Shown: piece after piece, positions 1-61,880 of the stretch
Layout: every line of letters starts with the position of its first letter
Numbering within the stretch: position 1 is the first letter of the stretch
DNA from: Bacillota bacterium
GTDB taxonomy: Bacteria; Bacillota; Clostridia; Christensenellales; UBA1242
DNA length: 64,000 bases
Assembly: GCA_009784555.1 (NCBI GenBank)
Contig: WRBO01000007.1
Span: forward strand, 139-64,138
Direction: 5' to 3'
Translations under genes and position numbers: made by a program
The notes under the pieces: model-generated
Seen by the model: the letters and a program-made list of their open reading frames with translations, nothing else
Told to the model about the DNA's origin: nothing
Database searches by the model: none

Positions 1-1614
1 CGTCGCATCGGTAATCACAACACCACCATGCGTCAACGTCAACGCATGCGATGTCCCCGTCTGCATAACATTCGGATGCATCGTCCAACCGGCCCCCGAA
101 CCTCCGCCGCCCCCGCCACCACCGGAACCGCCGCCATCACCAATATTGGCCCAAAGGGCAGGGATTTGCATGGCCCCAATCAAAATCAAAATAATAATCA
201 ACGACGCAACCGCATTAATCATATGTTTCTTGGCCTCACGCCGCTTATTCGGGTCACCCGCCTTTGCTAACTTAAACCCCAGCCATATTGCCAAAGGAAC
301 AATCAATGTCGCAACGACCAAAAAAATCCACGTAACAACCTGCATCAAATCCTCGGCAAACGTATTCGCTAACATCGGCCCAACTTGAAATAACTCTACA
401 CCATACGAAAAATTCATCGGCGCGGCCAACGACCGTCCCATCGCGTTATCCCATTGCACCATCTGAAAGAACACGTTACCTTCACCCAAAATCCCTGGGT
501 TGCCTGCGGTTCCGCGTTGTGGAACTGATGTTGACCATGGCCCCGTGGTGCCCGTCTCGTAAATCTGGGTACGCGAAACGTTGTTAACGCTACCTACCCA
601 CGTTTGCCCGCTAAAGTTATTGTTGACCTCACGCTCCCACAACCAACGGGTCCAAAAGATATGCATCCCGTTCGTCGGGTCACGACCCGCAATCGCGGCA
701 TCGGCCGCACGAACGTATCGGTTGTTTGGGAAATCATTGTCAACCGCGGTGTGCGCGCCCGTGCTGGCCCACGGGGAAGGGAACTGGTGCGCACGGGTCA
801 CCGCCCCGCGGATATTCGTGTCACGGGTAAACAGGTCGAAATTCGCTTTAACACGGTTAACAACAACGGCACCAACCGCAACCAACGGGTCTAATGCATC
901 ACCCGACCCGCGGCCATACTCACCGCGCGCCTCGGCCCATATCAAACGGGCCAACAAATGTCTGTCTTCCTCTGGCACATTTGTCAAACCACCATTGTTT
1001 CCAATTGTCGCGGGCGGGCCTACTGGGCCAACTGGCTCACCCCCTCCGGCTCCTGGCGGGGTGGTCTCTGGTACATGTTCATTTGTCACTATAATGTTCA
1101 TATTGGGAACACGCTGGCCGGGCACGCTGACGGACACCACGACAACACCTTGGGTTGCTCCCGCGGTGAACTCGCTGCCACTTATCGTCCCTGGCCCCGA
1201 TACAATCGTAAATGTGGCCTCGGTCATCAAAACACGGTTATGTGTTACCTGCAATGTTCTGCTTTGGCCGGCCTGCACGACATTGGGGTGCAGGGTCCAA
1301 CCGGCCCCCGAACCTCCGCCGCCCCCGCCACCACCTGAACCGCCACCATCACCGATATTGGCCCAAAGGGCAGGGATTTGCATGGCCCCAATCAAAATCA
1401 GAATAATAATCAACGACGCAATCGCATTAATCATATGCTTCTTGGCCTCACGCCGCTTATTCGGGTCACCTGCCTTTGCTAACTTAAACCCTAACCATAT
1501 CGCCAACGGAACAATCAACGTCGCAACAACCAAAAAAATCCAGGTAACGACCTGCATCAAATCCTCGGCAAAAGTATTTGCCAACATCGTCGCGAAATCT
1601 GGAAAGTTCCCCAT
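1..1614 (-). CDS. Modular membrane-anchored cell-wall hydrolase. Module = 2-TM pilin/Maff2-like hairpin, Gly-rich linker, Ig-like (Big_2-like) segment, SleB/CwlJ-type hydrolase. A second hairpin module follows in the same frame. The 3' end runs off the window.
   Basis: Own reverse-strand translation. ATG at 1614 is preceded by AAGGATGAGG. The frame stays open for 538 codons to position 1; the ORF is absent from the supplied track, probably because it has no in-window stop. Product: MGNFPDFATMLANTFAEDLMQVVTWIFLVVATLIVPLAIWLGFKLAKAGDPNKRREAKKHMINAIASLIIILILIGAMQIPALW (two TM helices, basic loop), then GGGSGGGGGGGSG, an Ig-like segment, then EEDRHLLARLIWAEARGEYG..AVGAVVVNRV..AHQFPSPW (SleB/CwlJ Hydrolase_2 signature). 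At codon ~414 MLANTFAEDLMQVVTW... begins again in frame. Confidence 0.8.
   Translation of the reverse strand, partial: MGNFPDFATMLANTFAEDLMQVVTWIFLVVATLIVPLAIWLGFKLAKAGDPNKRREAKKHMINAIASLIIILILIGAMQIPALWANIGDGGGSGGGGGGGGSGAGWTLHPNVVQAGQSRTLQVTHNRVLMTEATFTIVSGPGTISGSEFTAGATQGVVVVSVSVPGQRVPNMNIIVTNEHVPETTPPGAGGGEPVGPVGPPATIGNNGGLTNVPEEDRHLLARLIWAEARGEYGRGSGDALDPLVAVGAVVVNRVKANFDLFTRDTNIRGAVTRAHQFPSPWASTGAHTAVDNDFPNNRYVRAADAAIAGRDPTNGMHIFWTRWLWEREVNNNFSGQTWVGSVNNVSRTQIYETGTTGPWSTSVPQRGTAGNPGILGEGNVFFQMVQWDNAMGRSLAAPMNFSYGVELFQVGPMLANTFAEDLMQVVTWIFLVVATLIVPLAIWLGFKLAKAGDPNKRREAKKHMINAVASLIIILILIGAMQIPALWANIGDGGGSGGGGGGGGSGAGWTMHPNVMQTGTSHALTLTHGGVVITDAT
85..375. repeat. 291-bp direct repeat, copy 1 (encodes the second 2-TM hairpin plus Gly linker)
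   Basis: Aligned by eye with 1297..1587. The two copies are colinear without gaps and differ at roughly 15-20 positions. Confidence 0.9.
1297..1587. repeat. 291-bp direct repeat, copy 2 (encodes the first 2-TM hairpin plus Gly linker)
   Basis: Same as 85..375. Similarity drops sharply outside the hairpin/linker segment. Confidence 0.9.
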
Positions 1615-1687
1615 TAATTCCTCATCCTTAGTTTGTGTAGAGGCTATTTTAATTATATATATACTGGTGGTTCTGGGCAAACCATTT

Positions 1688-1935
1688 TTGTCAGTAACCC
1701 CCTTGCATAAAAATTCATCCATGCTACGATAAAGCACAGGGGAGGTCTAATGCGTCACAAAATAAAAGTTCGGGCCGAACAGGCTATGCCTGTTCGCGTT
1801 TGGCCCGAAAAGGAGCGGAGCCAAGTGTTAGATGAGCGTTTTGCCCCAATGGGGCAAAACCGAATCGGAACGCAGGCGGAGCGGAAAACCCCCCCCAAAG
1901 AAAAACACAAAAGTAAAAACCCCCCCCCAAGGCTA
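1688..1935 (+). repeat. Dispersed intergenic element, copy 1 (terminus TTGTCAGTAACCCCCTT ... twin poly-C module)
   Basis: Left terminus TTGTCAGTAACCCCCTT at 1688..1704. Internal hairpins include CGAACAGGC-TAT-GCCTGTTCG and TTTTGCCCCA-AT-GGGGCAAAA. C8 at 1889..1896 and C9 at 1920..1928 are separated by the A-rich spacer AAAGAAAAACACAAAAGTAAAAA. Both termini recur inverted at 23465..23794. Confidence 0.75.
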
Positions 1936-2044
1936 CGCCCTCGGGCCAAACGCTCGGCCTGCGTGCGCATTTGATGCCACAACGAGCCGAAAAGTATTGG
2001 ACAAGGGATTTAGGTCTATGATATAAGAGAATAAATGGGGGTAA

Positions 2045-2995
2045 ATGCACATGAAGACATCGTTGGTGTTGCCAATTTACAACGAACAAGAAATCCTGCA
2101 AGAGGTTCTGGCAAAATATAAAAGCGAGCTCGAAGAAATTGCCAAAGAAACCAATGGAACATATGAAATTATCGCGGTCAACGACGGTTGCACGGACACG
2201 TCCGTCGACATCCTAATGGCCGAGGCAAAGAAAAACCGCAGCCTCCGCATCATAAACTTCGACGACCGCTACGGGAAACAGGCCGCGGTCACCGCGGGAA
2301 TGGAAGCCGCAACGGGTGACGTGGTAATCCTCGCCGACATCGACCTTCTAAACCCCGTTGGCGTTATCACCAATCTGGTCCAGGAATACCAAAACGGCAG
2401 TAACATTGTCTACGCCTACCGCGAGGCAATCGGCCGCGAAAAAATGCGCCGTCGCGTGGGTGGGTTCTTTATACGGGGGGCCAGCCTCCTGTTCGACATC
2501 GACGGGGAATACACGGGCAAGGCAAACATCTCTCTGTTCTCCCGCCACGCCGCGGATGTTCTGGTCGCATTGCCAAACAAAAACAAATTCCTCCGCACAA
2601 TGGACCACTGGGTCGGATTTGAAATCAAAAAATTTGAATTTGCCAGTGAATACAGCAAAACTGAAATCACCCAAAAAGTCCGCAAAGCCCAAGCCAAAAA
2701 ACGTGCGGAAGGTTGCCCAACCATGCGCCGCGAAAAATCACGCGAACACACCCCGTCAAAAATCTACGGCGTCTGCGCGCTGATTATGACCCTGTTGTTT
2801 ATCGGCACATGGATTGCATTGGAGGTCTTTACCGACGGTCTTGGCGTAATATGGGCATTGGTATTCATCATCGCCATCGCTTGCGCATTACTCTCAACTG
2901 GCTTGTTCTTCCTCCGTGCGCTTATGGTGAAACGAATTGGCCTCATCTATTCCGAAGAAGACATGCTCTACATCATCGAAAGTGATGTGAACTAA
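2045..2995 (+). CDS. GT2 family glycosyltransferase, GtrB/CsbB-like polyprenol-phosphate glycosyltransferase
   Basis: LPIYNEQE, IIAVNDGCTDTS and LADIDL motifs (GT-A fold) plus two C-terminal TM helices. The ATG at 2051 has better spacing to the GGGGG SD. Confidence 0.85.
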   Translation: MHMKTSLVLPIYNEQEILQEVLAKYKSELEEIAKETNGTYEIIAVNDGCTDTSVDILMAEAKKNRSLRIINFDDRYGKQAAVTAGMEAATGDVVILADIDLLNPVGVITNLVQEYQNGSNIVYAYREAIGREKMRRRVGGFFIRGASLLFDIDGEYTGKANISLFSRHAADVLVALPNKNKFLRTMDHWVGFEIKKFEFASEYSKTEITQKVRKAQAKKRAEGCPTMRREKSREHTPSKIYGVCALIMTLLFIGTWIALEVFTDGLGVIWALVFIIAIACALLSTGLFFLRALMVKRIGLIYSEEDMLYIIESDVN

Positions 2996-3025
2996 ATCAA
3001 ACCATATGCTACAATTAAATAATAC

Positions 3026-3050
3026 AAAAGAGGCATGATAGCCTCTTTTG
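3026..3050 (+). terminator. Rho-independent terminator after the GT2 gene
   Basis: AGAGGC-ATGATA-GCCTCT stem-loop followed by TTTT. Confidence 0.7.
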
Positions 3051-3055
3051 CGTGA

Positions 3056-4087
<1,032 letters not shown>

Positions 4088-4185: not shown

Positions 4186-7100
4186 ATGGATATATGGGGA
4201 ATGTCGGGGTTTATCAGGCGCGGTCTTGCCGCCGCGGCCGAAGCCATTGGAAACTTCTTTGCCGAGGTCTTCTTTGCTTTTGCCGACCGAATTGCAATTG
4301 TGTACTTCTCGCTTTGGACATGGCTTGCACGGTTCATGAACGTGATGGAGGACCTCTTCCGAATGTTGGCTGGTGTCGACCCACTCGAGGGTGATAACAG
4401 TCACCTTACGGGCGAAACGGTTGCCGCGGGCGAAACTAATATAGTCATGATGATATTAGGCAGTCAATTCGTACAAAACGTCTTTATCGCCCTCATGTCC
4501 GTCGCTATTGTTCTGTTGATATTCTTTACAATCCTGCAATTGGTACGAAACCAATACAAATCCAAAGACGGCGGCAACCCATATATGCAGGTCTTCAAGA
4601 TGTTCAAAGGGATGATTTTGTTCATATTCATTACCGCGGCCGTATTCGTCGGTCTTTTCCTGTCTGGTGTTGTCTTCAGGATGTTAGAAGAAGCCATATC
4701 ACCGGGCGACAGGCGGCATATGACGGCTCTCATGTTCAATGCGGCGGCATCCGATGCGAACCGATTACGAATGAATCCTCTCGATTATACGTGGATTGAC
4801 CAAAACGAACGACGGTTCAACGCCATAGTCGAACCAAGTATGAATGACGACCGTGCGCACTATCGACTAACTACCGAACAAATACTAATTGCCGACTCGG
4901 AAGAGGTATATCAATCATGGGTGCATGGTGATACCGACTTTCCATCTGGATTACGACGTTTCGAGGTTGTCTTGGAATACGAAATCCTTGACTCCACACG
5001 TTTCCAAGACAGGGTTTACTGGCGTTGGGACGAGTCCACACCTCCTGTGATGGTGATATATAACACCGTTTTTGCCGATATGACAATCCCAATGCGGCCT
5101 GCCGATGACTTTGTTAACAACACATCATGGGCACCTATAATGGAAACCAACAGGCAAAGGCAACCCCTAGAGTTCTTTACACAATCAACGGCTCGTCCAA
5201 TCATTGCGGGGGTAAATGCACTCTACAGTGTCAACGAAGACCCAGACGGCTGGGAGAGTGAAATCTTGGCTCGCCCACCGTATGTGGCAATGGTAAACAG
5301 TATCGAGCAATCATATCTCCAAATAACACAACTATTGGAAGACACATTCGGTGCCGCAGGGGGCAGGGAAGCTATAAGGGCATTCTTTGAATCCAACGTT
5401 GAATTCGGGGCCGTACGGACTCCTATCGATGAAAACCGTCTTGTGCCTCCACCTGCATCTACCGTGTTACCCCCTCCTGGTTATGGCCCGGGCCGTCACG
5501 CATGGATTGACATAACCCAATGGGACCATGTCCAGGGTGAAAGATGGCATTTCACATTCTGGTTCTTGGGCTTGGATGACGACGATGGGAACATAGACCC
5601 GGTTCAAAATTTACTTGATAATTGGGAAAATAACCACGCTCCTGTAATAACACTAACATTCGGGAACCAAGCTGTCCCTGTTGGAACCGTCGGCGGGTTT
5701 GCTCGCGGACATGGCGGCGACCCACAATGGGTATCTTTTACCACACGAATTCCAACTGCCAGACCTGCTGCGGGATTATCGTCTGACCAACTGGAACTTA
5801 TGGCTGAATGGATTGATATAAACATGACTCTAATGGACCCAATATTCTTTCTAGATTTCCTTGCAGCAGAAGGAGCAGATGTTGATACAGATGATTCAGC
5901 CCTACAACAACTGGGCGTCTTCCACTATACAAATGCCGCGGCCGTTGTCCATATGTACAACGTCTTTGAAATGAGCTTCATTCTCCTATGGCTCGGGATG
6001 TTCATCATCTTTGGTGTGTTCATGAACTTTGCATTCGGTCTGATACAACGTCTTGTTGAATTGACATTGCTATACATGTTGTCTCCATTAACTGTGGCAT
6101 TCTATCCATTTGACGACGGCCAATCATTCAAGAGCGCGTTTGCACAACCATTCTACAAAAAAGTTCTGTCCATGTACGGGGTGCTTCTATCTCTTAACAT
6201 ATTCTTCATTCTCTATCCAGTTATCTCCAGTATCCAATTCTTCCCCGAACAACCTGGGTTGGGTAACTGGCGAAATGCCTTGACAGGAATATTGGTGACA
6301 TTGGCGATGCTGACGATGTTGCCGAACATACGTAATCAAATCAACTCTATGCTCGGTGCCGACTCTATCTCTGAAAAGAAAATGGGCCAGGTATGGAAAG
6401 ATGCCGTCGGCGCAACAGTAGGCCAGGGTGGCGCAATGACCGCGGGCCTAACCAACAAACTGAACAAAGCGGGTGACCAAAGCCTGCTTGCAACCGCACG
6501 TGACGCGGGCAAAGGCGTCCACAGTGCCGCGCACAAAGGCGCGAAACAGGTCACGCGTATAGGTCGCATCATGGAAAAAACTCGCGACATGAAAAACAGT
6601 CTCGGCTACGGTAAAGACATGCGCGACCAGGCATTCCAATTGCACAAAGGCAAAGAGGGCGAAAGAGCCGCCGCGCACGAAAAGCGAATGTTGGCCGAAA
6701 AGATGAAGCAATGGGGTATCAAAGACTTCAAGGACAAAGGTACCGAGGACAAGGTCAAGGCTCAAATAGCGAAAAAAGCCGCGGCCATGGCCAAGGCGGA
6801 AACGCACTCTATGACCGATGCAGACATGCGTGCGGCAAAGCAAAAAGCTGGTGTAGGCAACCGAATGATGGCAAGTACCATGAACCAAATATTCAACCCT
6901 GCGTCATTCATGAACCGCGACCCTGAAAAGAGTATCCTTCACGCTATGAGCCACGAAGGCCGCATGCAAGAGAGCGAAAAGCAAGACAAGAAATGGGAAG
7001 CCCACATCAAAGGCAAAATGGCAACCAAGGTCGAGCAAATGAAGGAACGCCACATCACGAACCAACACGCGGACGAAATGCTGGAATTCCAACGCCTCAT

Positions 7101-8709
7101 GGAAGAGGGTACTGGTAAAAACTTGACTGGAAACGAATTGATGCAATTCGTAAAAGACAACCTCTCAAAGGGCCAAGGACATTTCGCTGACATCATGGAC
7201 AGCACGGGTATAGCCGCCGTTCTTGGTGATGCGGTCGGCCAATTCGCCCAAGAAGACCACAAAGAAATCGCACAAGCATTGAAACTGGGCAGCGAGGACG
7301 CAATTAAAAAAGCCCTCCAAAAAATCAACCCAAACATCGACCTGGATTTCGCCGATATAGCTAAACGAGCTGACACCGTCATGAAAAACCGACTATCGAA
7401 CGTCGATGGCATGAATTCATTCATTCATGAAAATATCGCAAAGGGCGACAGAGAAGCGTTCAAAGGCCTGCTGAATGCTGGTAATATGGAGGAAATCGAA
7501 AAGAAATTCGGCTCCCGTATTGCTGATGGTGTCCACATGACACTTGCCCAAGGCGGTATCGAAAACACCGACGACGTGATGGCCGCAAAGCGCGCAATAT
7601 TCAACATGGAAATGTTCGACCGCGCTGACAAGCAAGAGGGTCTCATGAAACGTCAGGTTCATGTCCTCGGCCTCGACCACGGCCAGGCGGGTCGCGACAA
7701 AGTCTTGGAATACATGGAAATGCTTGGCGCAACCAAATATGACCAAGTTGCAAAAGACCTCGGCGCAGGCGCAACTGACGACCAAATAAAAGCCGAAATG
7801 CGTAACAGGACAAAAAACCTGGAAAACTGGGAATCAAAGAATATCAGTGCCCGCAAGATTTGGGAAATCGACAACTCCGAAAAATTCATGGACAACGTCG
7901 GCGGCGGTCTGATTGTTGGCGCGGCAAAGGAAATCTTGGATGCATCTATGTTCCGAATGCGTGACATCGACCCATCATTAATCCAAGCCTTCGCAAAAGA
8001 CGAAAAGGCAACCGACCTGTTGGCAAAAGGCAATGTCGAACAACTGGCCCAAATGATGCGAAAAATCGCCCAATCTGGCGGTGACGATGACCAAGGCATG
8101 ACGGCACTGGCCGCGCACGTCAAAAACGACAACAAAATGCGTGATTCCCTGATGCGATACGCCCAGGTCTACGAGGCAATCGGTGACACTGGCGACATGC
8201 TACGTGGTGCAGGTATCGACGAAGCCAAGAACAGCATGTCCAAACTTATGGTCATCGGACACCAACAAATGCTTAAATCGGTGCTAGAGGCTGCGGTTGG
8301 CGGCTATGCTGGTGACGAAGACCACGCACGTCGTGAACGTACTCGCTTGGTGGCAAAGATTACCGCGGACATCGCTCGCGCCCGCTCCGACGGGTTCGAG
8401 GATGTCGCCCGCGCCCTGGAAGAGGGGCTCGCTCACCAAGGTGACGGTGGCGGTGATGTGGCAAAGATGAAAGAAGCGATGGGAAATGCAAAGAAAAAAG
8501 TTGACGCTCACATGCTAAATGTCACCGACCAATCATTGAAAATGGTGTACAACGGGATAACTGAATCCGCGCAAAGCCTTGCAGGTATTCTGGCTACCGA
8601 GATGCAATCGTCCGAACAGATTGACGTCTACAGAAAAGCTATGAAAGCTCTTGACAAAGGAACCAACCCAATCACACTCGGAAAGCTTGAAAAGCCAGAC
8701 GCAAAATAG
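4186..8709 (+). CDS. Giant polytopic membrane protein, VirB6/TrbL/ConG/TcpH-like by architecture, with a ~750-aa charged K/E/A/M/D-rich cytoplasmic tail
   Basis: About 3 N-terminal TM helices, a ~400-aa soluble insert, and about 4 more TM helices (FILLWLGMFIIFGVFMNFAFGL, LLYMLSPLTVAFY, MYGVLLSLNIFFILYPVI, ILVTLAMLTMLP). A long low-complexity, coiled-coil-like tail follows. The gene sits immediately upstream of the VirB4-like ATPase. Confidence 0.6.
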   Translation: MDIWGMSGFIRRGLAAAAEAIGNFFAEVFFAFADRIAIVYFSLWTWLARFMNVMEDLFRMLAGVDPLEGDNSHLTGETVAAGETNIVMMILGSQFVQNVFIALMSVAIVLLIFFTILQLVRNQYKSKDGGNPYMQVFKMFKGMILFIFITAAVFVGLFLSGVVFRMLEEAISPGDRRHMTALMFNAAASDANRLRMNPLDYTWIDQNERRFNAIVEPSMNDDRAHYRLTTEQILIADSEEVYQSWVHGDTDFPSGLRRFEVVLEYEILDSTRFQDRVYWRWDESTPPVMVIYNTVFADMTIPMRPADDFVNNTSWAPIMETNRQRQPLEFFTQSTARPIIAGVNALYSVNEDPDGWESEILARPPYVAMVNSIEQSYLQITQLLEDTFGAAGGREAIRAFFESNVEFGAVRTPIDENRLVPPPASTVLPPPGYGPGRHAWIDITQWDHVQGERWHFTFWFLGLDDDDGNIDPVQNLLDNWENNHAPVITLTFGNQAVPVGTVGGFARGHGGDPQWVSFTTRIPTARPAAGLSSDQLELMAEWIDINMTLMDPIFFLDFLAAEGADVDTDDSALQQLGVFHYTNAAAVVHMYNVFEMSFILLWLGMFIIFGVFMNFAFGLIQRLVELTLLYMLSPLTVAFYPFDDGQSFKSAFAQPFYKKVLSMYGVLLSLNIFFILYPVISSIQFFPEQPGLGNWRNALTGILVTLAMLTMLPNIRNQINSMLGADSISEKKMGQVWKDAVGATVGQGGAMTAGLTNKLNKAGDQSLLATARDAGKGVHSAAHKGAKQVTRIGRIMEKTRDMKNSLGYGKDMRDQAFQLHKGKEGERAAAHEKRMLAEKMKQWGIKDFKDKGTEDKVKAQIAKKAAAMAKAETHSMTDADMRAAKQKAGVGNRMMASTMNQIFNPASFMNRDPEKSILHAMSHEGRMQESEKQDKKWEAHIKGKMATKVEQMKERHITNQHADEMLEFQRLMEEGTGKNLTGNELMQFVKDNLSKGQGHFADIMDSTGIAAVLGDAVGQFAQEDHKEIAQALKLGSEDAIKKALQKINPNIDLDFADIAKRADTVMKNRLSNVDGMNSFIHENIAKGDREAFKGLLNAGNMEEIEKKFGSRIADGVHMTLAQGGIENTDDVMAAKRAIFNMEMFDRADKQEGLMKRQVHVLGLDHGQAGRDKVLEYMEMLGATKYDQVAKDLGAGATDDQIKAEMRNRTKNLENWESKNISARKIWEIDNSEKFMDNVGGGLIVGAAKEILDASMFRMRDIDPSLIQAFAKDEKATDLLAKGNVEQLAQMMRKIAQSGGDDDQGMTALAAHVKNDNKMRDSLMRYAQVYEAIGDTGDMLRGAGIDEAKNSMSKLMVIGHQQMLKSVLEAAVGGYAGDEDHARRERTRLVAKITADIARARSDGFEDVARALEEGLAHQGDGGGDVAKMKEAMGNAKKKVDAHMLNVTDQSLKMVYNGITESAQSLAGILATEMQSSEQIDVYRKAMKALDKGTNPITLGKLEKPDAK

Positions 8710-8730
8710 TAACAAAAAGGTTAGGATGAA

Positions 8731-11376
8731 ATGTCAGAAGAAGTAAGCGTCATACGATACATACCGCGCAAAACTCGGGTCAAGACCGAGTTTGCGCGCG
8801 GTATCACGGGGGGCGACCTGTTCTATGTTGCTATTGTCTTTGGTATACTCTTGCTCTTCGGTATGTCAAACCTGCCTGGTAACTGGCTCATTGTAATTGG
8901 GTTGTTAATTGTCTTCGGTTTGGGCTTTATCAAGGTTGACGAGGGTGTGCGTGTCTACGGAACCACATGGAGGTACTTCCGCTTCTTGGCCTACAGCAAA
9001 AAATACGCCAAAATCATCGGCAACGGCTGGCGGGATATACATGACTTGGTTCCATACAAAGGCATAATTGATGACAAGTTCATCGACTATGACGAATACT
9101 TTGGCATCGTCGTCGAAATTGAACCAATCGAGTTCGGGCTTTTGGACGAACAAAAGCAAAACATCGTTGTTAATACTTTTGCTAATGCAATTCGTCGAAT
9201 CGGGCCAAAACAAAATGCATCCTTGATACGTTTGGAACGAGGGATGGTCTTGGACAGATACGTCGAGTACGAAATCGACAAGTACGAGGAAACCGTCAAG
9301 GCCCTGGAACGCGGCAAAATGACCGAGGCCGAACTTGATGCGCGGGAAGTCATCTTCAACGACCGCGGAATTTTGCTGGAATACATGAACGAGGAAGAAA
9401 AAATATTCCGCAGCTGCTATTTCTTGGTCATCTACGACACCGATAAAAACATCTTGGGAAATATAGCCCAAGCGGTTTGCAACACATTGGGAGGCAGCAG
9501 TGTCAGTGTAGAGGCAAAGATTGTCACGGGCCGCGAACTCTATATCTTCTTGCGTGCAAACTATAACAAAGACTTTGACGAACGTGTCACAAAAGACATG
9601 CCTGACGACAAACTGTATAACTGGGTCATCCCGAACAAAGTTCAATTTGATATGACCAAGGCCCGTGTTAACGGCTTGCCACGCGCGACATTTACTGTGA
9701 CCGACTATCCGTTGGACGTGGCGAACGCGTGGGGCTATGGAATTTTCAATATGCCTGGCACGCGTACCGTCATGAATTTCCACCAAGTCGCCAAGGAAGA
9801 CTCTATCAAAATCATTGACAAGGCAATCTTGGAATTGAAAACAACAATGCAAGACAGCCACAAGTCCAGTTTCCACATAGAGCGCAGTACACAACTTGAA
9901 ACCGTGTCCAGTCTGCTGGTTCAATTAAAAAATAACAACGAACAAATGATGGACGTGAACATCCACTTCACACCCGACCAAGACATGGAAAAAGAGGTCA
10001 AAGCAAAACTCTCGGAAGAGGGCTTCAAATCAACCAAACTTATCGGCCGTCAAATCGATGGCTTCATCAGTACCAATATAAGTCGCCTCGAAACCTTTGA
10101 TGAATACCGCCGCGGTATCCCAACAACGACCCTGGCCGCATCATTCCCTTTCATCAGCGACATGTTACAAGACGAGCGAGGAATATGTATAGGAAGCAAC
10201 AGCAACCCTGTTTTCATCGACTTCTTCAAACGGAACAACGCACGTGTTAACAGTAACATGATGATAATCGGAAAATCTGGTTCTGGAAAATCCTTTGCAA
10301 CAAAGGTCATCTTGGCTCACCTGGCCGCCGATAACACCAAAATTTTCATTCTTGACCCGGAAAAAGAATACGTAAAAATCGGTCAAATGCTACACGGGAA
10401 CAGTATCGACGTCGGTAACGCGGGAAAGGGCCGTTTCAACCCATTCCATATTTACCCGGCCATGATGGACGAGGACGAGAACGGCTCGGAATTCGATGAC
10501 ACCTATGAATCGCACCTCCGATTCTTGGAATCTTTCTTCCGTATAGTTATGGAAGGTATCGCCGTCGACGCGCTCGAGGTTCTGAACGGTCTTGTTGCAC
10601 AACTTTACCGTATGAAAGGAATTAACAAAGACACCGACTTCACAAAACTTCAACCTGAAAACTTCCCAATATTCCAAGAATTGTTTGTCCTAGCGAAACA
10701 GGCCCTAGCCGCCGCCAGTGACGACTTCCTGAAAATTAACTTGCGGCGTATCGTCACATATCTGGAAAAGTTCGCCGAGGGTGGGCGATTCTCTGGCCTT
10801 TGGAACGGCCCCGCATCCATCAGTGCGGATGAAAACTTCTTCGTCTTTGACTTCCTCACATTACTCTCAAACCGTAACGCGATTGTTGCAAACGCCCAAA
10901 TGCTCTTGACCTTCAAATTCTTGGATGGGGAAATCATCAAAAACCGTGAATATAACCGAATTTATAACACCAAGCGCAAGATAATCATCGCGGTTGACGA
11001 GGCCCACGTCTTCATCGACGAACAACGTCCAATCGCCCTGGACTTCATGTTCAACATGGCGAAACGTATCCGAAAATACGACGGTATGCAAATAATCATC
11101 ACACAAAACGTCAAGGACTTTGTCGGGTCGCCGATTATCGCGAAAAAATCCGCCGCGATTATAAACGCCAGCCAATACAGTATGATTTTCTCCCTTGCGC
11201 CGAACGACATGACCGACCTTGTGACCCTTTACAAAAACGCTGGTGGTATCAACAAGACCGAGCAAGAGCAAATCGTGTCCAACGCTCGCGGTCAATGTTT
11301 CTTTATTACAAGTCCAGTCAACAGAACCCTAGTAAGTATAGAGGCCAGCGACGACCTGCGCAAAATGTTTGAATAA
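8731..11376 (+). CDS. VirB4/TraC/PrgJ-family T4SS ATPase with an N-terminal PrgI/VirB3-like 2-TM domain
   Basis: N-terminus IPRKTRVKTEFARGITGGDLFYVAIVFGILLLFG..LIVIGLLIVFGLGF (PrgI-like). Walker A IGKSGSGKSFATK. Walker B KIIIAVDEAHVFID. The size (881 aa) is typical of Gram-positive VirB4 proteins. Confidence 0.85.
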   Translation: MSEEVSVIRYIPRKTRVKTEFARGITGGDLFYVAIVFGILLLFGMSNLPGNWLIVIGLLIVFGLGFIKVDEGVRVYGTTWRYFRFLAYSKKYAKIIGNGWRDIHDLVPYKGIIDDKFIDYDEYFGIVVEIEPIEFGLLDEQKQNIVVNTFANAIRRIGPKQNASLIRLERGMVLDRYVEYEIDKYEETVKALERGKMTEAELDAREVIFNDRGILLEYMNEEEKIFRSCYFLVIYDTDKNILGNIAQAVCNTLGGSSVSVEAKIVTGRELYIFLRANYNKDFDERVTKDMPDDKLYNWVIPNKVQFDMTKARVNGLPRATFTVTDYPLDVANAWGYGIFNMPGTRTVMNFHQVAKEDSIKIIDKAILELKTTMQDSHKSSFHIERSTQLETVSSLLVQLKNNNEQMMDVNIHFTPDQDMEKEVKAKLSEEGFKSTKLIGRQIDGFISTNISRLETFDEYRRGIPTTTLAASFPFISDMLQDERGICIGSNSNPVFIDFFKRNNARVNSNMMIIGKSGSGKSFATKVILAHLAADNTKIFILDPEKEYVKIGQMLHGNSIDVGNAGKGRFNPFHIYPAMMDEDENGSEFDDTYESHLRFLESFFRIVMEGIAVDALEVLNGLVAQLYRMKGINKDTDFTKLQPENFPIFQELFVLAKQALAAASDDFLKINLRRIVTYLEKFAEGGRFSGLWNGPASISADENFFVFDFLTLLSNRNAIVANAQMLLTFKFLDGEIIKNREYNRIYNTKRKIIIAVDEAHVFIDEQRPIALDFMFNMAKRIRKYDGMQIIITQNVKDFVGSPIIAKKSAAIINASQYSMIFSLAPNDMTDLVTLYKNAGGINKTEQEQIVSNARGQCFFITSPVNRTLVSIEASDDLRKMFE

Positions 11377-11393
11377 CAAGGGGGAGACACGCC

Positions 11394-11792
11394 ATGATGA
11401 AATTTAACGCACTAATCCCAGAATTAAGTGTCACCGATTTCAAAAAGAGCCTACATTTTTACCTGGACATCGGATTTCGTATCCGATACGAACGCCCCGA
11501 ACGTGACTTCGCCTTCATCCAACTCGAAGGCAATCAAATAATGCTCGAAAAATATAACGGTAATTGGGAAACTGCAAAACCCGAATATCCTTTTGGCCGT
11601 GGCATGAACATAAGTATGTCCGTAAAATCCGTCGGCGCCATACACAAACGCGCCGCGGATTGTGGCTATCCCATATTCCGCGGCATCGAGGACTATGAAT
11701 ACCGAATGGACAACAAAATGCTCTACGGCAAAGAATTCCTAATCCTCGACCCCGACGGCTGGCTCCTACGCTTCACCGAAAGCTACGAATAA
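11394..11792 (+). CDS. VOC superfamily protein (glyoxalase/bleomycin-resistance-like)
   Basis: 132 aa with LSVTDFKKSLHFY..LGF near the N-terminus and LILDPDGWLLRF at the C-terminus, both typical of the VOC fold. Confidence 0.65.
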   Translation: MMKFNALIPELSVTDFKKSLHFYLDIGFRIRYERPERDFAFIQLEGNQIMLEKYNGNWETAKPEYPFGRGMNISMSVKSVGAIHKRAADCGYPIFRGIEDYEYRMDNKMLYGKEFLILDPDGWLLRFTESYE

Positions 11793-45806: not shown

Positions 45807-46799
45807 TTAATGTACGCTTCGGTATGTTCCTTTAGATATTTCTATTTCTAGTTTTTCTGGTGGGATTCCGTGCTTGATGCAAAGTTGCATTATGTCTTCT
45901 CGTTTTAAAAAAGCACTTGGGCCTATAACTATCTTTCTGATAAACCCTTTATCTATCAACTTGGAAAAATCAAACTCCTTGTAGTAAACGACCCTATCAT
46001 TTTTTGACTCTACTACTATCTCTGGACTTTCATCAAAGTCGTAATCGAATTTGTCGTTCATTCCGCGAATTTTCCAACTCCCTTTATCGTCTTTAGTGTA
46101 ATAAGTGGTCTTGCTGTATTTTTTATTCACAATCAAGCGCCACTCTTTTTCTTCTTTGAAGAAATCGTTCTTATAAAAAATGAATTCAGTCATTGCTGTA
46201 TGTAGAAAAGACCAGATAAACATTTGAGCTAAGCGCTCAATTGTAGGGCTACCGTCGTCATCTTTATATTTTTCCATAGAGCTTTTAATATGGTCTAGAC
46301 AATTATTTAACCATTTGGTAATTTCACTACTTGCAATTTTTTCTTCTGCATTTATATACGTAATACTGTTTAATTTATAAGGTTTGAAATCAAAACATGG
46401 GTCACATTCTTTCTCTAGTAAGTTAAAATCAAAACCAATAGCCACTCCGCGTCCATCGTTTCCGTATGCTCTCCATTGGCTTAATAAATCATCTTCTTCG
46501 GAAAAACAGGCACAGAATATTACGCCATCTTCTGGTCGTTCGGACATATAGCTAAAAGCCTTTTTAGCTATTGTCTCAAAGTTCAGGGTTTTTCCACTTT
46601 TGCCTTTTATTGTAAAAGGATTTTCTTTGTATAGTTTGACTAATTCTGTAAGAACATTTGGATAGGCCCACCTAACCTCCATGAAGTCATTGAAGGAATT
46701 ATGGTCGCTTAGCCTTATCTTTTTCTTCTCTAGGATTTTTTCAAAAACTTCAAGTGAACGATATTGATAAATTATTTTGCTATCTTCTGTCTGTCGCAC
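45807..46799 (-). CDS. DUF2971-family protein on a low-GC single-gene island
   Basis: LLSQWRAYGNDGRGVAIGF resembles the DUF2971 core. GTG start with an AAAGGAGA SD. Sampled 60-nt lines give 22-40% GC, against more than 55% in the flanking ppdK. Confidence 0.6.
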   Translation of the reverse strand: MRQTEDSKIIYQYRSLEVFEKILEKKKIRLSDHNSFNDFMEVRWAYPNVLTELVKLYKENPFTIKGKSGKTLNFETIAKKAFSYMSERPEDGVIFCACFSEEDDLLSQWRAYGNDGRGVAIGFDFNLLEKECDPCFDFKPYKLNSITYINAEEKIASSEITKWLNNCLDHIKSSMEKYKDDDGSPTIERLAQMFIWSFLHTAMTEFIFYKNDFFKEEKEWRLIVNKKYSKTTYYTKDDKGSWKIRGMNDKFDYDFDESPEIVVESKNDRVVYYKEFDFSKLIDKGFIRKIVIGPSAFLKREDIMQLCIKHGIPPEKLEIEISKGTYRSVH

Positions 46800-46877
46800 A
46801 AAATTTCTCCTTTAGTGATTATATCATAAATTAAATCTTAACCGCACCAAAACCCTAGGTCAGTCATATAAATCCCC

Positions 46878-47897
46878 ATGGCAACAATAGTACTCGACGC
46901 TGGTCACGGCGGACATGACCCTGGGGCGACACTGGGCACACGACGGGAATCGGACGACGCACTGCGTATGGTCTTGGCGGTGGGGCGCATCCTTGAAAAC
47001 TGCGGCCACCGCGTAGTCTACACACGGCGGACGGACGTGTTTATCCCGCTGTCCGAACGCGCCCGTATTTCAAACAACGCGGGCGCAAATATCTTCGTAT
47101 CCATCCACAGAAACGGCAGCACCAATTCGGCGGCCGAGGGCACCGACAACTTTGTCCGTGTCGCGGCCACACAACGCGAGGTCGACTTTGCAACCCGCGT
47201 CCTTAACCGTGTCCTGGCACTAAACGTGTTTCGTAACCGCGGCATCCAACGCGCGAACTTCACCGTCCTTACACAAACCAATGCACCCGCACAATTGCTG
47301 GAACTCGGCTTTATAACCAACCCCCTCGACAACGCACGCTTCGATGCAAATTTCGACAGGATTGCCACGGCCGTGGCAACGGGCATCATGGACAACGTCG
47401 GCCCATGTCGCGGAACACCAACAACGCCGCCGCCCGTAGTAACACCACCACCCGTAACCCCGCCGCCCCCACCCCCAACAACGGACGACAGGGCGGTCAT
47501 CCGACAAATCCAAACCCGCCTTAACCAACAATTTGGTCAACATCTGGCGGTCGACGGAATCGCGGGGCCACTAACTCGCCGCGCCCTCACACGCGCCCTG
47601 CAAATGGTACTAAACACGGAATTCGCCTGCCGCCCCCTCCTCGCCGTCGACGGCATCTTCGGCCCCCTAACACGCGGCTGTGTTCCTCTGGTGCGTGCGG
47701 GGATGCGCGGCAACATCGTCTGGGTACTGCAATCGGCCATGTTCATCCACGGCTTCCGCACAAACCCCGACGGCATCTTCGGCCCGCTGACAAATCAAAC
47801 GGTACGCAACTTTCAATCATCACGCGGCCTTGGCATCGACGGCATAGCCGGCCCAATCACATTTACCGAACTGTTTCGCTCTCCGCCTTTTCCATAA
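46878..47897 (+). CDS. N-acetylmuramoyl-L-alanine amidase (Amidase_3) with two C-terminal peptidoglycan-binding repeats
   Basis: LDAGHGGHDPGA and SIHRNG motifs, a Pro-rich linker, and two VDGIxGPLT PG_binding_1-like repeats. Confidence 0.9.
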   Translation: MATIVLDAGHGGHDPGATLGTRRESDDALRMVLAVGRILENCGHRVVYTRRTDVFIPLSERARISNNAGANIFVSIHRNGSTNSAAEGTDNFVRVAATQREVDFATRVLNRVLALNVFRNRGIQRANFTVLTQTNAPAQLLELGFITNPLDNARFDANFDRIATAVATGIMDNVGPCRGTPTTPPPVVTPPPVTPPPPPPTTDDRAVIRQIQTRLNQQFGQHLAVDGIAGPLTRRALTRALQMVLNTEFACRPLLAVDGIFGPLTRGCVPLVRAGMRGNIVWVLQSAMFIHGFRTNPDGIFGPLTNQTVRNFQSSRGLGIDGIAGPITFTELFRSPPFP

Positions 47898-61034: not shown

Positions 61035-61880
61035 ATGATTCCAAACGAACTTAAAAAAGTTTTCGATTACGTAGGCAAAAGTCCATGGCCGGACAACGTC
61101 CCCGACGACGTGGTCTTTGAATGTGGTAAACGTGCGGCCGCCGATATGATGCAATCGGGCGACTATTATTCGGACAAATTGATATATCGTCTGGCGGGGC
61201 AGAGTGGCTCGGGCAAAACAACCCAACTCCTCCCAACCATAATGAAATTTGAACAACTCCGCGCCCGCAACCCAATTACAATCGCGGTGCGCAACTTCCC
61301 AATATATCACCCCGACTACGATAAAATCGTGGCACAATTTCCTGCGGGAGAGGTTCGCGAAAAAACCAACGGCTTCGCACTAAAATGCCTGGCCGTGGCC
61401 GTCCGCGAAATTCTATCGCGGGGACTATTAACCGTCCTCGACGTAACAATCCTCGACCCGATATTCGAGGAATTCATAAACGGCCAAATCGTGGAAAACG
61501 GCTACACGGCCCAATACCACATACTGGCGGTATCTCGTGCTCAATCGGATATCTTCATCGAAAAACGTCGCCGCGCGGCTGGCGGGGCTGAATCTGGCAA
61601 AATCGTTTACGCAAAAACGGGGGACTACTTCTACGATATCCTACCACGGGGAATTGAATACCTCGCCTCGGTCGACCGCGTGTCAAACGCACTGGTATGG
61701 TCGGCATACGACACAACCCCACTATATACGGGGCACTTCCGCGGCGTGAACGAGGCACTTACAAACGGTCGCCGTATAACCCGCATCCCGGTATTGTCCG
61801 AGGACGAAATGCGCCAAGCAAAACTTGCCTTCATGCACCTCTACTTCTATAAAATTCCTGTTCCCGACCCGCTCGCTTAA
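61035..61880 (+). CDS. Zeta-toxin-family P-loop kinase
   Basis: Walker A GQSGSGKTT and the downstream RNFPIYHPDYDKI, as in zeta/PezT-type UNAG kinases. Confidence 0.65.
   Translation: MIPNELKKVFDYVGKSPWPDNVPDDVVFECGKRAAADMMQSGDYYSDKLIYRLAGQSGSGKTTQLLPTIMKFEQLRARNPITIAVRNFPIYHPDYDKIVAQFPAGEVREKTNGFALKCLAVAVREILSRGLLTVLDVTILDPIFEEFINGQIVENGYTAQYHILAVSRAQSDIFIEKRRRAAGGAESGKIVYAKTGDYFYDILPRGIEYLASVDRVSNALVWSAYDTTPLYTGHFRGVNEALTNGRRITRIPVLSEDEMRQAKLAFMHLYFYKIPVPDPLA

Follow-up and report, generated by a model that had tools for sequence, protein, structure and literature searches.

Why would a bacterium join a pilin-like membrane hairpin to a cell-wall hydrolase, and then carry two such units in a single reading frame? 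This question is raised by the first 1,614 positions of a 64-kb stretch of DNA (contig WRBO01000007.1 of assembly GCA_009784555.1; hereafter the window). There, an open reading frame (ORF) on the minus strand encodes one complete module, composed of a two-helix hairpin, a Gly linker, an immunoglobulin (Ig)-like domain and a SleB-type Hydrolase_2 domain, followed in frame by the beginning of a second. The reading towards which we lean, if modestly, is that the modules are wall hydrolases tethered by PF18895 hairpins and serving a chromosomal, relaxase-less type IV secretion system (T4SS), with two of them merged in frame.

The frame is free of stop codons from the ATG at 1614 down to base 1, a run of 538 codons that would arise by chance with a probability of about 1e-8 at the window's own minus-strand stop frequency. 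The database copy of its product (P0001, 584 aa, on a contig of 64,836 nt) is 46 residues longer than the part in the window and ends where the Ig-like segment of module 2 would be expected to end, which looks like a probable truncation by the contig end. Positions 85..375 and 1297..1587 form a repeat in which 273 of 291 bases are identical (93.8%), with a longest exact run of 46 nt and a similarity that collapses beyond roughly 61..381. The repeat spans 'MLANT' through 'GAGW', that is, the hairpin and its Gly linker, and 15 of its 18 mismatches fall on third codon positions. An earlier note, made from the letters alone, had described the single frame and the near-identical repeat, and both descriptions hold. 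The peptides that it quoted (TLHPNVVQAGQSRTLQVTH, TMHPNVMQTGTSHALTLTH and the basic loop AKAGDPNKRREAKKHM) are found in the translation, and the internal ATGs that it named, at 417 (M400) and 375 (M414), are both in frame. A 383-aa ORF on the plus strand (581..1732), antisense to module 1, has a Pro/Gly-rich translation and was set aside as a probable shadow of the coding strand.

The hairpin matches a family of pilins. By itself it scores 43.2 bits against PF18895 (T4SS_pilin; cut-off 26.6), and the whole ORF scores 69.4 bits against the same family over two stretches, the second at residues 424–483. The whole ORF also matches NF045849, the Mbov_0395 family of pilin-like conjugal transfer proteins, at 74.8 bits (cut-off 40). 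An AlphaFold model of the hairpin and Ig-like domain, built from a 62-sequence alignment (overall predicted local distance difference test score, pLDDT, of 79), places helices at residues 7–47 and 51–87 (pLDDT 82–86), giving two hydrophobic helices joined by the short basic loop KAGDPNKRREAKKHM. The pilin-like hairpin of the earlier note is therefore supported by two family models above their cut-offs. Furthermore, all 30 relatives tested match PF18895 and have in common the loop motif A-x-[DE]-x-x-K-R-x-x-A-K, a pattern that a generic signal-anchor, the outcome that would have removed the pilin interpretation, does not explain. The two families consist of small stand-alone proteins (about 70–120 aa), whereas here ~330 residues follow each hairpin and two modules occupy one ORF. 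As read from the sequence, the hairpin combines an acidic N-tail with a basic loop and passes from helix 2 into the Gly linker; this distribution agrees with the positive-inside rule for an out-in-out hairpin, and is consistent with the outside-in-outside arrangement proposed earlier.

Behind the Gly linker, which is disordered in the model, residues 106–177 form a beta domain with a pLDDT of 90–96. Its best Foldseek matches in the PDB are the Ig domain at the lambda gpV C-terminus (2l04), intimin, Rib, Big_2-CBM56 and LigA, with probabilities of 0.99–1.00 but E-values of just 3e-3 to 3e-2. The best sequence-profile match of the segment is 2l04 too (E = 0.048), and the six Ig segments match no Pfam family at E up to 10. 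The Ig-like assignment made in the earlier note is thus corroborated by the confidently modelled, Big_2-type fold. The enzyme domain matches PF07486 (Hydrolase_2) over residues 208–335 at 41.2 bits (cut-off 27), and an alignment with SleB (4f55) keeps the AEARGE, AVGAVVVNRV and DPT motifs, confirming a SleB-type hydrolase; we take the Glu of these motifs to be catalytic. This domain also matches the endolysin family phrog_14642 of PHROGs. It is not a SleB equivalog, with a TIGR02869 score of 36.7 bits against a cut-off of 236.5 and a match limited to residues 212–329. A whole-module AlphaFold run from a four-sequence alignment was unusable (pLDDT 38.5), and because the sole usable model is that of the hairpin and Ig-like domain, the hydrolase fold is assigned from profiles.

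A holin-endolysin cassette of the signal-arrest-release (SAR)-endolysin kind was considered and rejected, since the hairpin matches no holin family in PHROGs, where its one hit, to a family whose function is unknown, is weak (E = 0.0025). Of the profile comparisons proposed in the earlier note, that with Hydrolase_2 was positive, and those with holins and, among the families listed, with PF04956 (TrbC/VirB2) were negative.

The array appears to continue on a metagenomic contig of 5,131 nt (L001, JGI 3300010162), which starts with the peptide at the P0001 end. It carries, in order, the remainder of a SleB-like module with a stop at 862; a 790-aa ORF (gene 843–3215) made of a hairpin-Ig-M23 module and then an in-frame hairpin-Gly-Ig module with an unassigned domain, so that it reads T4SS_pilin-M23-T4SS_pilin; P0002, a hairpin-Gly-Ig module with a C-terminal domain that matches no Pfam family and shows M23-like motifs by eye; and the beginning of one further module. 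Extension to the left, as the earlier note suggested, adds the 46 residues of P0001 and, by way of this contig, apparently four more modules. Window and contig together give at least six modules for the family, and the array has at least two in the window and probably six or more in all.

The first 94 nt of this contig (1–94) are identical to its last 94 nt (5038–5131) and match the protein end of P0001, which indicates the signature of a repeat node or loop in the assembly graph, running through the repeat family. An exact 52-mer scan of GTDB genomes gave no match, neither P0001 nor the product of the neighbouring GT2 gene had an exact match, and a plasmid tblastn search was negative. A metagenome scan returned just the same contig and one distant relative (L003). 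A genome scan with the hairpin profile yielded two loci, a Treponema RREAKKH peptide and a Solirubrobacteraceae locus, both of them spurious.

The junctions between modules bear on whether the fusion is genuine. At two overlapping junctions, which have GGAGGGTTTATGAAT in common, the next ATG overlaps the upstream stop by 14–20 nt and the Shine-Dalgarno sequence lies within 'RRVYE' at the C-terminus of the upstream gene; this arrangement is that of translationally coupled pairs. One further junction has a 22-nt gap with AAGGAGG. Every separate module keeps an AGGAGG before its ATG. In contrast, the two fused junctions (modules 1–2 of the window and modules 3–4 on L001) carry neither a stop codon nor a Shine-Dalgarno sequence. 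Read side by side, both fused junctions have a motif, TCGTTGGCC / TCCGTTGGCC, followed by ATTTTT, that is absent at the separate junctions; the motifs are not in register in a MAFFT alignment, and their likeness is our own reading. We regard this common motif as a sign of common origin, in which case the open fused state would have persisted through divergence.

The ATG at 417 (MNFSY...) corresponds to the position at which separate modules start (MNTF/MNFS) and is now in frame, within a junction (376–480) of unique sequence that lies outside the repeat. Because the open state occurs in two diverged copies, both without a ribosome-binding site, the fusion looks maintained, which argues that it is real, and neither an error nor a fresh accident. 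The earlier note had offered as an alternative that two adjacent paralogues had lost the stop between them. As the origin of the fusion this is likely, but separate initiation of module 2 is disfavoured, as the Shine-Dalgarno sequence is gone as well. At 414–432, a predicted 8-bp stem, TCGTTGGC-CGC-GCCGATGA, followed by a T-run, encloses the ATG at 417, and it arises from about nine extra bases relative to the unfused junctions.

Substitution patterns differ sharply between hairpin and Ig-like domain. For the hairpin core (61 codons), the two window copies give a synonymous divergence (dS) of 0.32 and a nonsynonymous divergence (dN) of 0.007 (dN/dS 0.02); across all six modules dS is 0.3–0.8, dN is up to 0.08 and dN/dS is 0.015–0.13. 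The adjacent Ig domain has a dS of 1.1 to saturated, a dN of 0.18–0.59 and a dN/dS of 0.14–0.43. Five of the six modules differ from one another by 0–2 of the 61 residues, with module 3 differing at 9–10 positions, and the module 2 hairpin shows 0–1 amino-acid changes against 11–15 synonymous changes. Judged by these ratios, the likeness of the hairpins is due mainly to purifying selection at the protein level, and such extreme constraint marks the hairpin as a putative interaction surface.

Recent conversion as the only explanation was rejected on the hairpin dS (0.32 for the window pair, 0.3–0.6 overall). Some homogenisation is nonetheless implied because dS in the neighbouring Ig region is at least 1.1, and the several-fold lower value in the hairpin implies past homogenisation or cassette exchange. 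Mosaicism is also seen: window module 2 and L001 module 6 have a dS of 0.1 in the Ig part (30 codons) and 0.35 in the hairpins, and their leaders differ. Thus, the gene conversion or recent duplication put forward in the earlier note survives as an older homogenisation and fails as a recent event, with a dN/dS of 0.02 reflecting purifying selection. The features of the locus are collected in Table 1.

Table 1 Features of the module array and of the VirB6-like/VirB4 pair in the window
Feature	Position	Strand	Basis
ORF: complete module 1 (aa 1–399), junction, beginning of module 2 (aa 400–538)	1..1614	-	stop-free translation; P0001 extends to 584 aa at contig end
Promoter-like TTGCCC-17-TATAAT 5′ of module 1	1652..1680	-	consensus scan, 10/12 matches; pattern match only
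Shine-Dalgarno AAGGATGAGGA of module 1, before ATG 1614	1619..1629	-	read from sequence
Hairpin 1 (aa 19–85): transmembrane (TM) helix, basic loop KAGDPNKRREAKKHM, TM helix with QIPALWA end	1360..1560	-	PF18895, NF045849, AlphaFold
Gly-rich linker 1 (aa 86–105, NIGDGGGSGGGGGGGGSGAG)	1300..1359	-	translation; pLDDT <50 at residues 90–102
Ig-like (Big_2-type fold) domain 1 (aa 106–180)	1075..1299	-	AlphaFold all-beta domain and Foldseek
SleB/CwlJ-type cell-wall hydrolase domain (aa 208–335)	610..993	-	PF07486, 4f55 alignment, phrog_14642
Fused junction, ancestral start ATG 417 (MNFSYGVELFQVGP), second ATG at 375	376..432	-	comparison with L001 junctions
Hairpin 2 (aa 423–489)	148..348	-	PF18895/NF045849 second stretch; 1 amino acid differs from hairpin 1
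Gly-rich linker 2	88..147	-	translation
Ig-like domain 2, first part, cut by window edge	1..87	-	translation; continues in P0001, protein identical to L001 module 6
Repeat copy A	1297..1587	.	partner of 85..375
Repeat copy B (hairpin and linker)	85..375	.	partner of 1297..1587
VirB6-like polytopic membrane protein, 1507 aa, long charged C-terminal half	4186..8709	+	NF045848 94.3 (cut-off 90), NF045889 70.1 (cut-off 70)
VirB4-type T4SS ATPase, 881 aa	8731..11376	+	NF045975 VirB4_plasma 577 (cut-off 590); PF19044, PF01935

The DNA of the window is chromosomal and of housekeeping character (GAPDH, a V/A-ATPase operon, IleRS, RNase R, PPDK, SpoIVB, PBP5 and a large signal recognition particle RNA), and the host, judged by SpoIVB and PBP5, is a spore-forming, Clostridia-type gut bacterium. 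At a distance of 2.6 kb from the array lie the genes for a VirB6-like protein and a VirB4-type ATPase. Among the ORFs scanned in the 64 kb there is no relaxase, VirD4/coupling protein or integrase. The VirB4 protein has more than 460 homologues at 48–71% identity, the named ones being Firmicutes, Christensenellaceae, Christensenellales or Clostridia metagenome-assembled genomes (MAGs). VirB6 and VirB4 genes are adjacent in all four closer relatives (~70% VirB4 identity), with different neighbours each time, and a distant relative (48% identity) carries VirB4 beside ftsA-ftsZ without a VirB6-like gene. The pair looks like a domesticated chromosomal T4SS. Small ORFs that follow VirB4 in the relatives are not pilin-like.

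In one of these relatives (L006; GCA_009784375.1, WRBV01000005.1), the upstream flank is just 6.6 kb long before the contig ends; the end (1–181) falls 180 nt upstream of the GT2 orthologue, at the position that the array occupies in the window, which suggests that the same repeat breaks that assembly too. In the window, the divergent 430-nt intergenic stretch between module 1 and the GT2 gene contains, within 1700–2044, two poly-G tracts on the minus strand, of 9 G at 1920–1928 and 8 G at 1889–1896, and perfect palindromes at 1838–1860 and 1776–1796. This stretch may be phase-variable or regulatory; Rfam has no family near the locus, this stretch included. Elsewhere (45807–47897 and 61035–61880), a DUF2971 protein lies beside an Amidase_3 protein with PG_binding_1 domains, and there is also a zeta-toxin family gene; these loci may be mobile or defence-related islands.

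The earlier note knew of neither a pilin-like hairpin fused to such a hydrolase nor an ORF with repeated modules, yet both occur repeatedly among publicly available proteins. With the 93-residue hairpin as query, exhaustive searching by phmmer yielded 241 representative clusters (E up to 1e-3). In the closest relatives (40–56% identity), an N-terminal hairpin is followed by 250–560 residues. Among 40 long single-hairpin relatives, 35 match PF18895, and their hydrolase matches are to M23 (15), NlpC/P60 (5), CHAP (3), Amidase_3 (2), Hydrolase_2 (1) and a C39-like domain (1). Many other matches are two-hairpin proteins of ~200 aa. Furthermore, single ORFs of 560–1150 aa carry 5–11 T4SS_pilin hairpins in series (P0124, P0126, P0128, P0130, P0155, P0198 and P0249). 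Some of these multi-hairpin ORFs match PF04956 (TrbC/VirB2), as does the 1,147-aa P0124 with its 11 PF18895 stretches. Both designs, hairpins in series within one polypeptide and hairpins joined to wall hydrolases, are therefore established in sequence space.

The surroundings of three relatives are informative. On a 268-kb Firmicutes MAG contig from the same sample as L001 (L016, JGI 3300010162), four related genes are inserted in an rpsB-tsf-frr-uppS-cdsA cluster (6862–11479); within 4 kb these encode TraX (F-pilin acetylase family), two stand-alone pilin-like proteins (110 and 145 aa) and a hairpin-M23 protein (NCBI MCL2569956.1). In a second (L014, 1918–4717), a hairpin-NlpC/P60 gene directly follows two genes that are FtsQ/DivIB-like and FtsA-like by eye, with no Pfam match on record. 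In a third (L015, 215–1622), a hairpin-Amidase_3 gene is followed by a gene with a TM helix and an apparent lytic-transglycosylase (SLT) motif. Anchored hydrolases thus seem to cluster in the last two of these relatives.

If the reading that we favour is correct, the conserved basic loop of each hairpin lies on the inner side of the membrane, and the short acidic N-tail and the C-end lie on the outer side. The flexible Gly linker and the Ig-like domain, whose fold is modelled with confidence, would act as a spacer that brings the enzyme into the wall. The enzyme differs by module, with a SleB-type domain in the window, an M23 domain, a second SleB-like domain and an unassigned domain in the continuation, and NlpC/P60, CHAP and Amidase_3 domains in relatives, and such a set would together be able to cut several peptidoglycan bonds. 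The near-invariant hairpin would have to fit a common partner, which we propose is the VirB6-like/VirB4 machine, contacted by docking or in a pilin lattice. In that case, the opening of the wall for a domesticated, relaxase-less monoderm T4SS, a VirB1-like function, would fall to the modules. From their sequence, modules 1 and 2 would have merged by losing the stop and the Shine-Dalgarno sequence of a once overlapping, coupled junction, and the fused product, if translated as such, would be a four-helix membrane protein with both enzyme arms outside.

A bolder version makes pilin subunits of the modules, as enzyme-carrying fusions or polyprotein precursors. By co-assembly of their hairpins, or by cleavage at QIPALWA|N, a pilin conduit would form that displays or releases a graded set of hydrolases and drills the cell's own wall or that of a neighbour, with the single ORF fixing the pilin-to-enzyme ratio. 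We consider this improbable.

Several observations weigh against a role in a T4SS or against the array as we describe it. Two unrelated genes (GT2 and GAPDH) separate the array from VirB6/VirB4, the array is divergently oriented, and the link to the T4SS consists of membership in a family and a single case of adjacency. The linkage is not kept in relatives: in four related genomes the 10 kb on either side of VirB4 contain no called pilin-family gene (the fifth, L006, has the short flank described above), and the hairpin-hydrolase genes of relatives sit amid division and housekeeping genes. A search of PDB sequences with the hairpin profile gave no solved VirB2 or TraA pilin, and PF04956 is not among the 25 families most frequently matched by 30 hairpins; homology of the hairpin to VirB2 proper would come from family curation and from indirect cross-hits, namely multi-hairpin relatives that match both PF18895 and PF04956. 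The contig of the window ends in the repeat family and L001 forms a closed loop in the assembly graph, which makes the order and number of modules uncertain and a chimeric join conceivable. Moreover, translation could still begin at either internal ATG (417 or 375).

Some of these points suit an explanation in which the modules are ordinary membrane-anchored autolysins, with the hairpin a pilin-derived two-pass anchor, that remodel the wall in growth, division or spore-related processes independently of the T4SS. Such a role would fit the neighbours of the relatives, which include FtsQ/FtsA-like genes (L014) and the interval between frr-uppS and cdsA (L016), as well as the VirB4 loci of relatives, where no pilin-family gene is called within the examined 10-kb flanks. 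It would also fit the spore-forming host (SpoIVB, PBP5), given that SleB-type domains are typical for spore cortex lysis. However, a mere anchor would not require 61 near-invariant residues (in five of six modules) at a dN/dS of 0.02, nor would it account for a loop motif common to these hairpins and stand-alone pilins, for an array located 2.6 kb from VirB6/VirB4 in the window or for the TraX homologue that adjoins pilin genes in L016. On balance we consider this explanation unlikely, though it deserves weight.

Somewhat less probable still in our judgement is that the single frame is an assembly or consensus artefact or a recent accident, with a separate second protein made from the ATG at 417 or 375, or with module 2 silent. 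The window contig does end in a repeat, the ends of L001 do overlap by 94 nt, the repeat copies have exact runs of up to 46 nt, the ATG at 417 corresponds to the start codon (MNTF/MNFS) of separate modules and P0002 is called from its MLANT methionine. Yet the junction at 376–480 is unique and outside the repeat, a second, diverged fused junction with the common motif is also open in L001, the AGGAGG of every separate module is gone at both fused junctions and the ATG at 417 lies within a predicted stem. Module 2 is also under purifying selection, with 0–1 amino-acid against 11–15 synonymous hairpin changes.

We give about the same low weight to processing of a precursor, which would be compatible with hairpin-tethered hydrolases serving the T4SS. 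Helix 2 would then be an internal signal peptide, and a cut by signal peptidase after A85 (and A489) would free the linker-Ig-hydrolase part and leave a mature pilin of ~85 residues, one ORF yielding both in fixed ratio. The putative signal peptide has a basic n-region (KRREAKKHM), a 17-residue hydrophobic core and a c-region, QIPALWA|N, and QIPALWANIGDGGG, conserved in five of six modules, appears by eye to fit the -3/-1 rule. The remnant would be of the size of stand-alone family members (86–110 aa), and C-terminal trimming of TrbC-type pilins is established. Opposing this, the Ala-X-Ala-like site is absent in module 3 (QIPGIFFDPP) and in relatives such as P0125 and P0131, and enzyme 1 of the fused protein would stay on hairpin 2 unless there were a second cut.

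How does the proposed hydrolase set compare with known systems? One of the closest is the trio of Mycoplasma integrative and conjugative elements (ICEs), Mbov_0395 (pilin-like), Mbov_0396 (membrane protein) and Mbov_0397 (VirB4), whose NCBIfam models match the window proteins at 74.8, 70.1 and 577 bits, the last being just below the equivalog cut-off of 590. Unlike the window proteins, however, Mbov_0395-type proteins have ~80 residues and no ectodomain, mycoplasmas are wall-less, and the window is housekeeping DNA instead of an ICE. The window hydrolase likewise shares aligned catalytic-domain motifs and a spore-forming host with the SleB/CwlJ cortex-lytic enzymes (PF07486; PDB 4f55), but it lacks the N-terminal peptidoglycan-binding domain of SleB and is instead joined to a pilin hairpin and an Ig spacer. 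The anchor of known VirB1-like hydrolases of Gram-positive bacteria is single-pass.

Monoderm T4SS hydrolases are known to be membrane-anchored at their N-terminus, and PrgK (pCF10), TraG (pIP501), CwlT (ICEBs1) and TcpG (pCW3) resemble the modules in that an N-terminal membrane anchor precedes at least one peptidoglycan hydrolase domain and in being encoded with VirB4 and VirB6-like genes (PMC4027160). The M23/LytM, CHAP and NlpC/P60 types occur in these VirB1-like proteins and in the hairpin family alike. Those proteins are single-copy and reside on conjugative elements with a relaxase and coupling protein, whereas the window has a pilin-family hairpin as the anchor, a gene array and a SleB-type domain. 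Measured against an MPF-FATA VirB1-like hydrolase, the locus has the anchor, the hydrolase and a nearby VirB4, and no relaxase, VirD4 or integrase among the window ORFs scanned.

The VirB2-like arrays of Patescibacteria (Southlakia epibionticum and Nanosynbacter lyticus TM7x; PMC12102498, PMC12857230) are alike in being tandem PF18895 paralogues in a monoderm with a chromosomal, monoderm-type VirB4/VirB6 T4SS and no relaxase nearby. They consist of short, stand-alone and divergent pilins (mean 25% identity), whereas the tandem PF18895 array described here has near-identical, not divergent, hairpins (90–100% in five of six modules, ~85% for module 3). Also in contrast, the window modules bear a ~330-residue Ig and hydrolase ectodomain, some neighbours are fused in frame, and the host is a Clostridia-type member of the Bacillota. 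The tandem VirB2 paralogues of Bartonella and Anaplasma (cited in PMC12102498) are likewise pilin genes amplified by a T4SS; there the exposed pilin itself varies, whereas in the window family the variation lies in the appended domains and the pilin part stays fixed. The hairpin-hydrolase design recurs in databases, and our literature search found no published description of pilin-hairpin-hydrolase fusions.

Reviews describe VirB2-type pilins as absent from Gram-positive T4SSs, with Patescibacteria as the sole exception (PMC12857230, PMC4027160), and the opening of thick walls by monoderm systems is known just for single anchored hydrolases. In the window, PF18895 hairpins that are physically joined to a toolbox of wall hydrolases are encoded near VirB6/VirB4 on a Clostridia-type chromosome. 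Should the hairpins prove to be precursors of a conduit, VirB2-type pilins would be at work in Bacillota, where such pilins are called absent. If the link to the T4SS is false, the locus would still illustrate how domains are shuffled behind a conserved anchor and how genes fuse across a translationally coupled junction. If the link is true, it would suggest that pilin insertion or assembly is coupled directly to local lysis of the wall, and a widespread, chromosomally fixed T4SS-like system of gut Clostridia would join the few non-conjugative T4SSs of monoderms.

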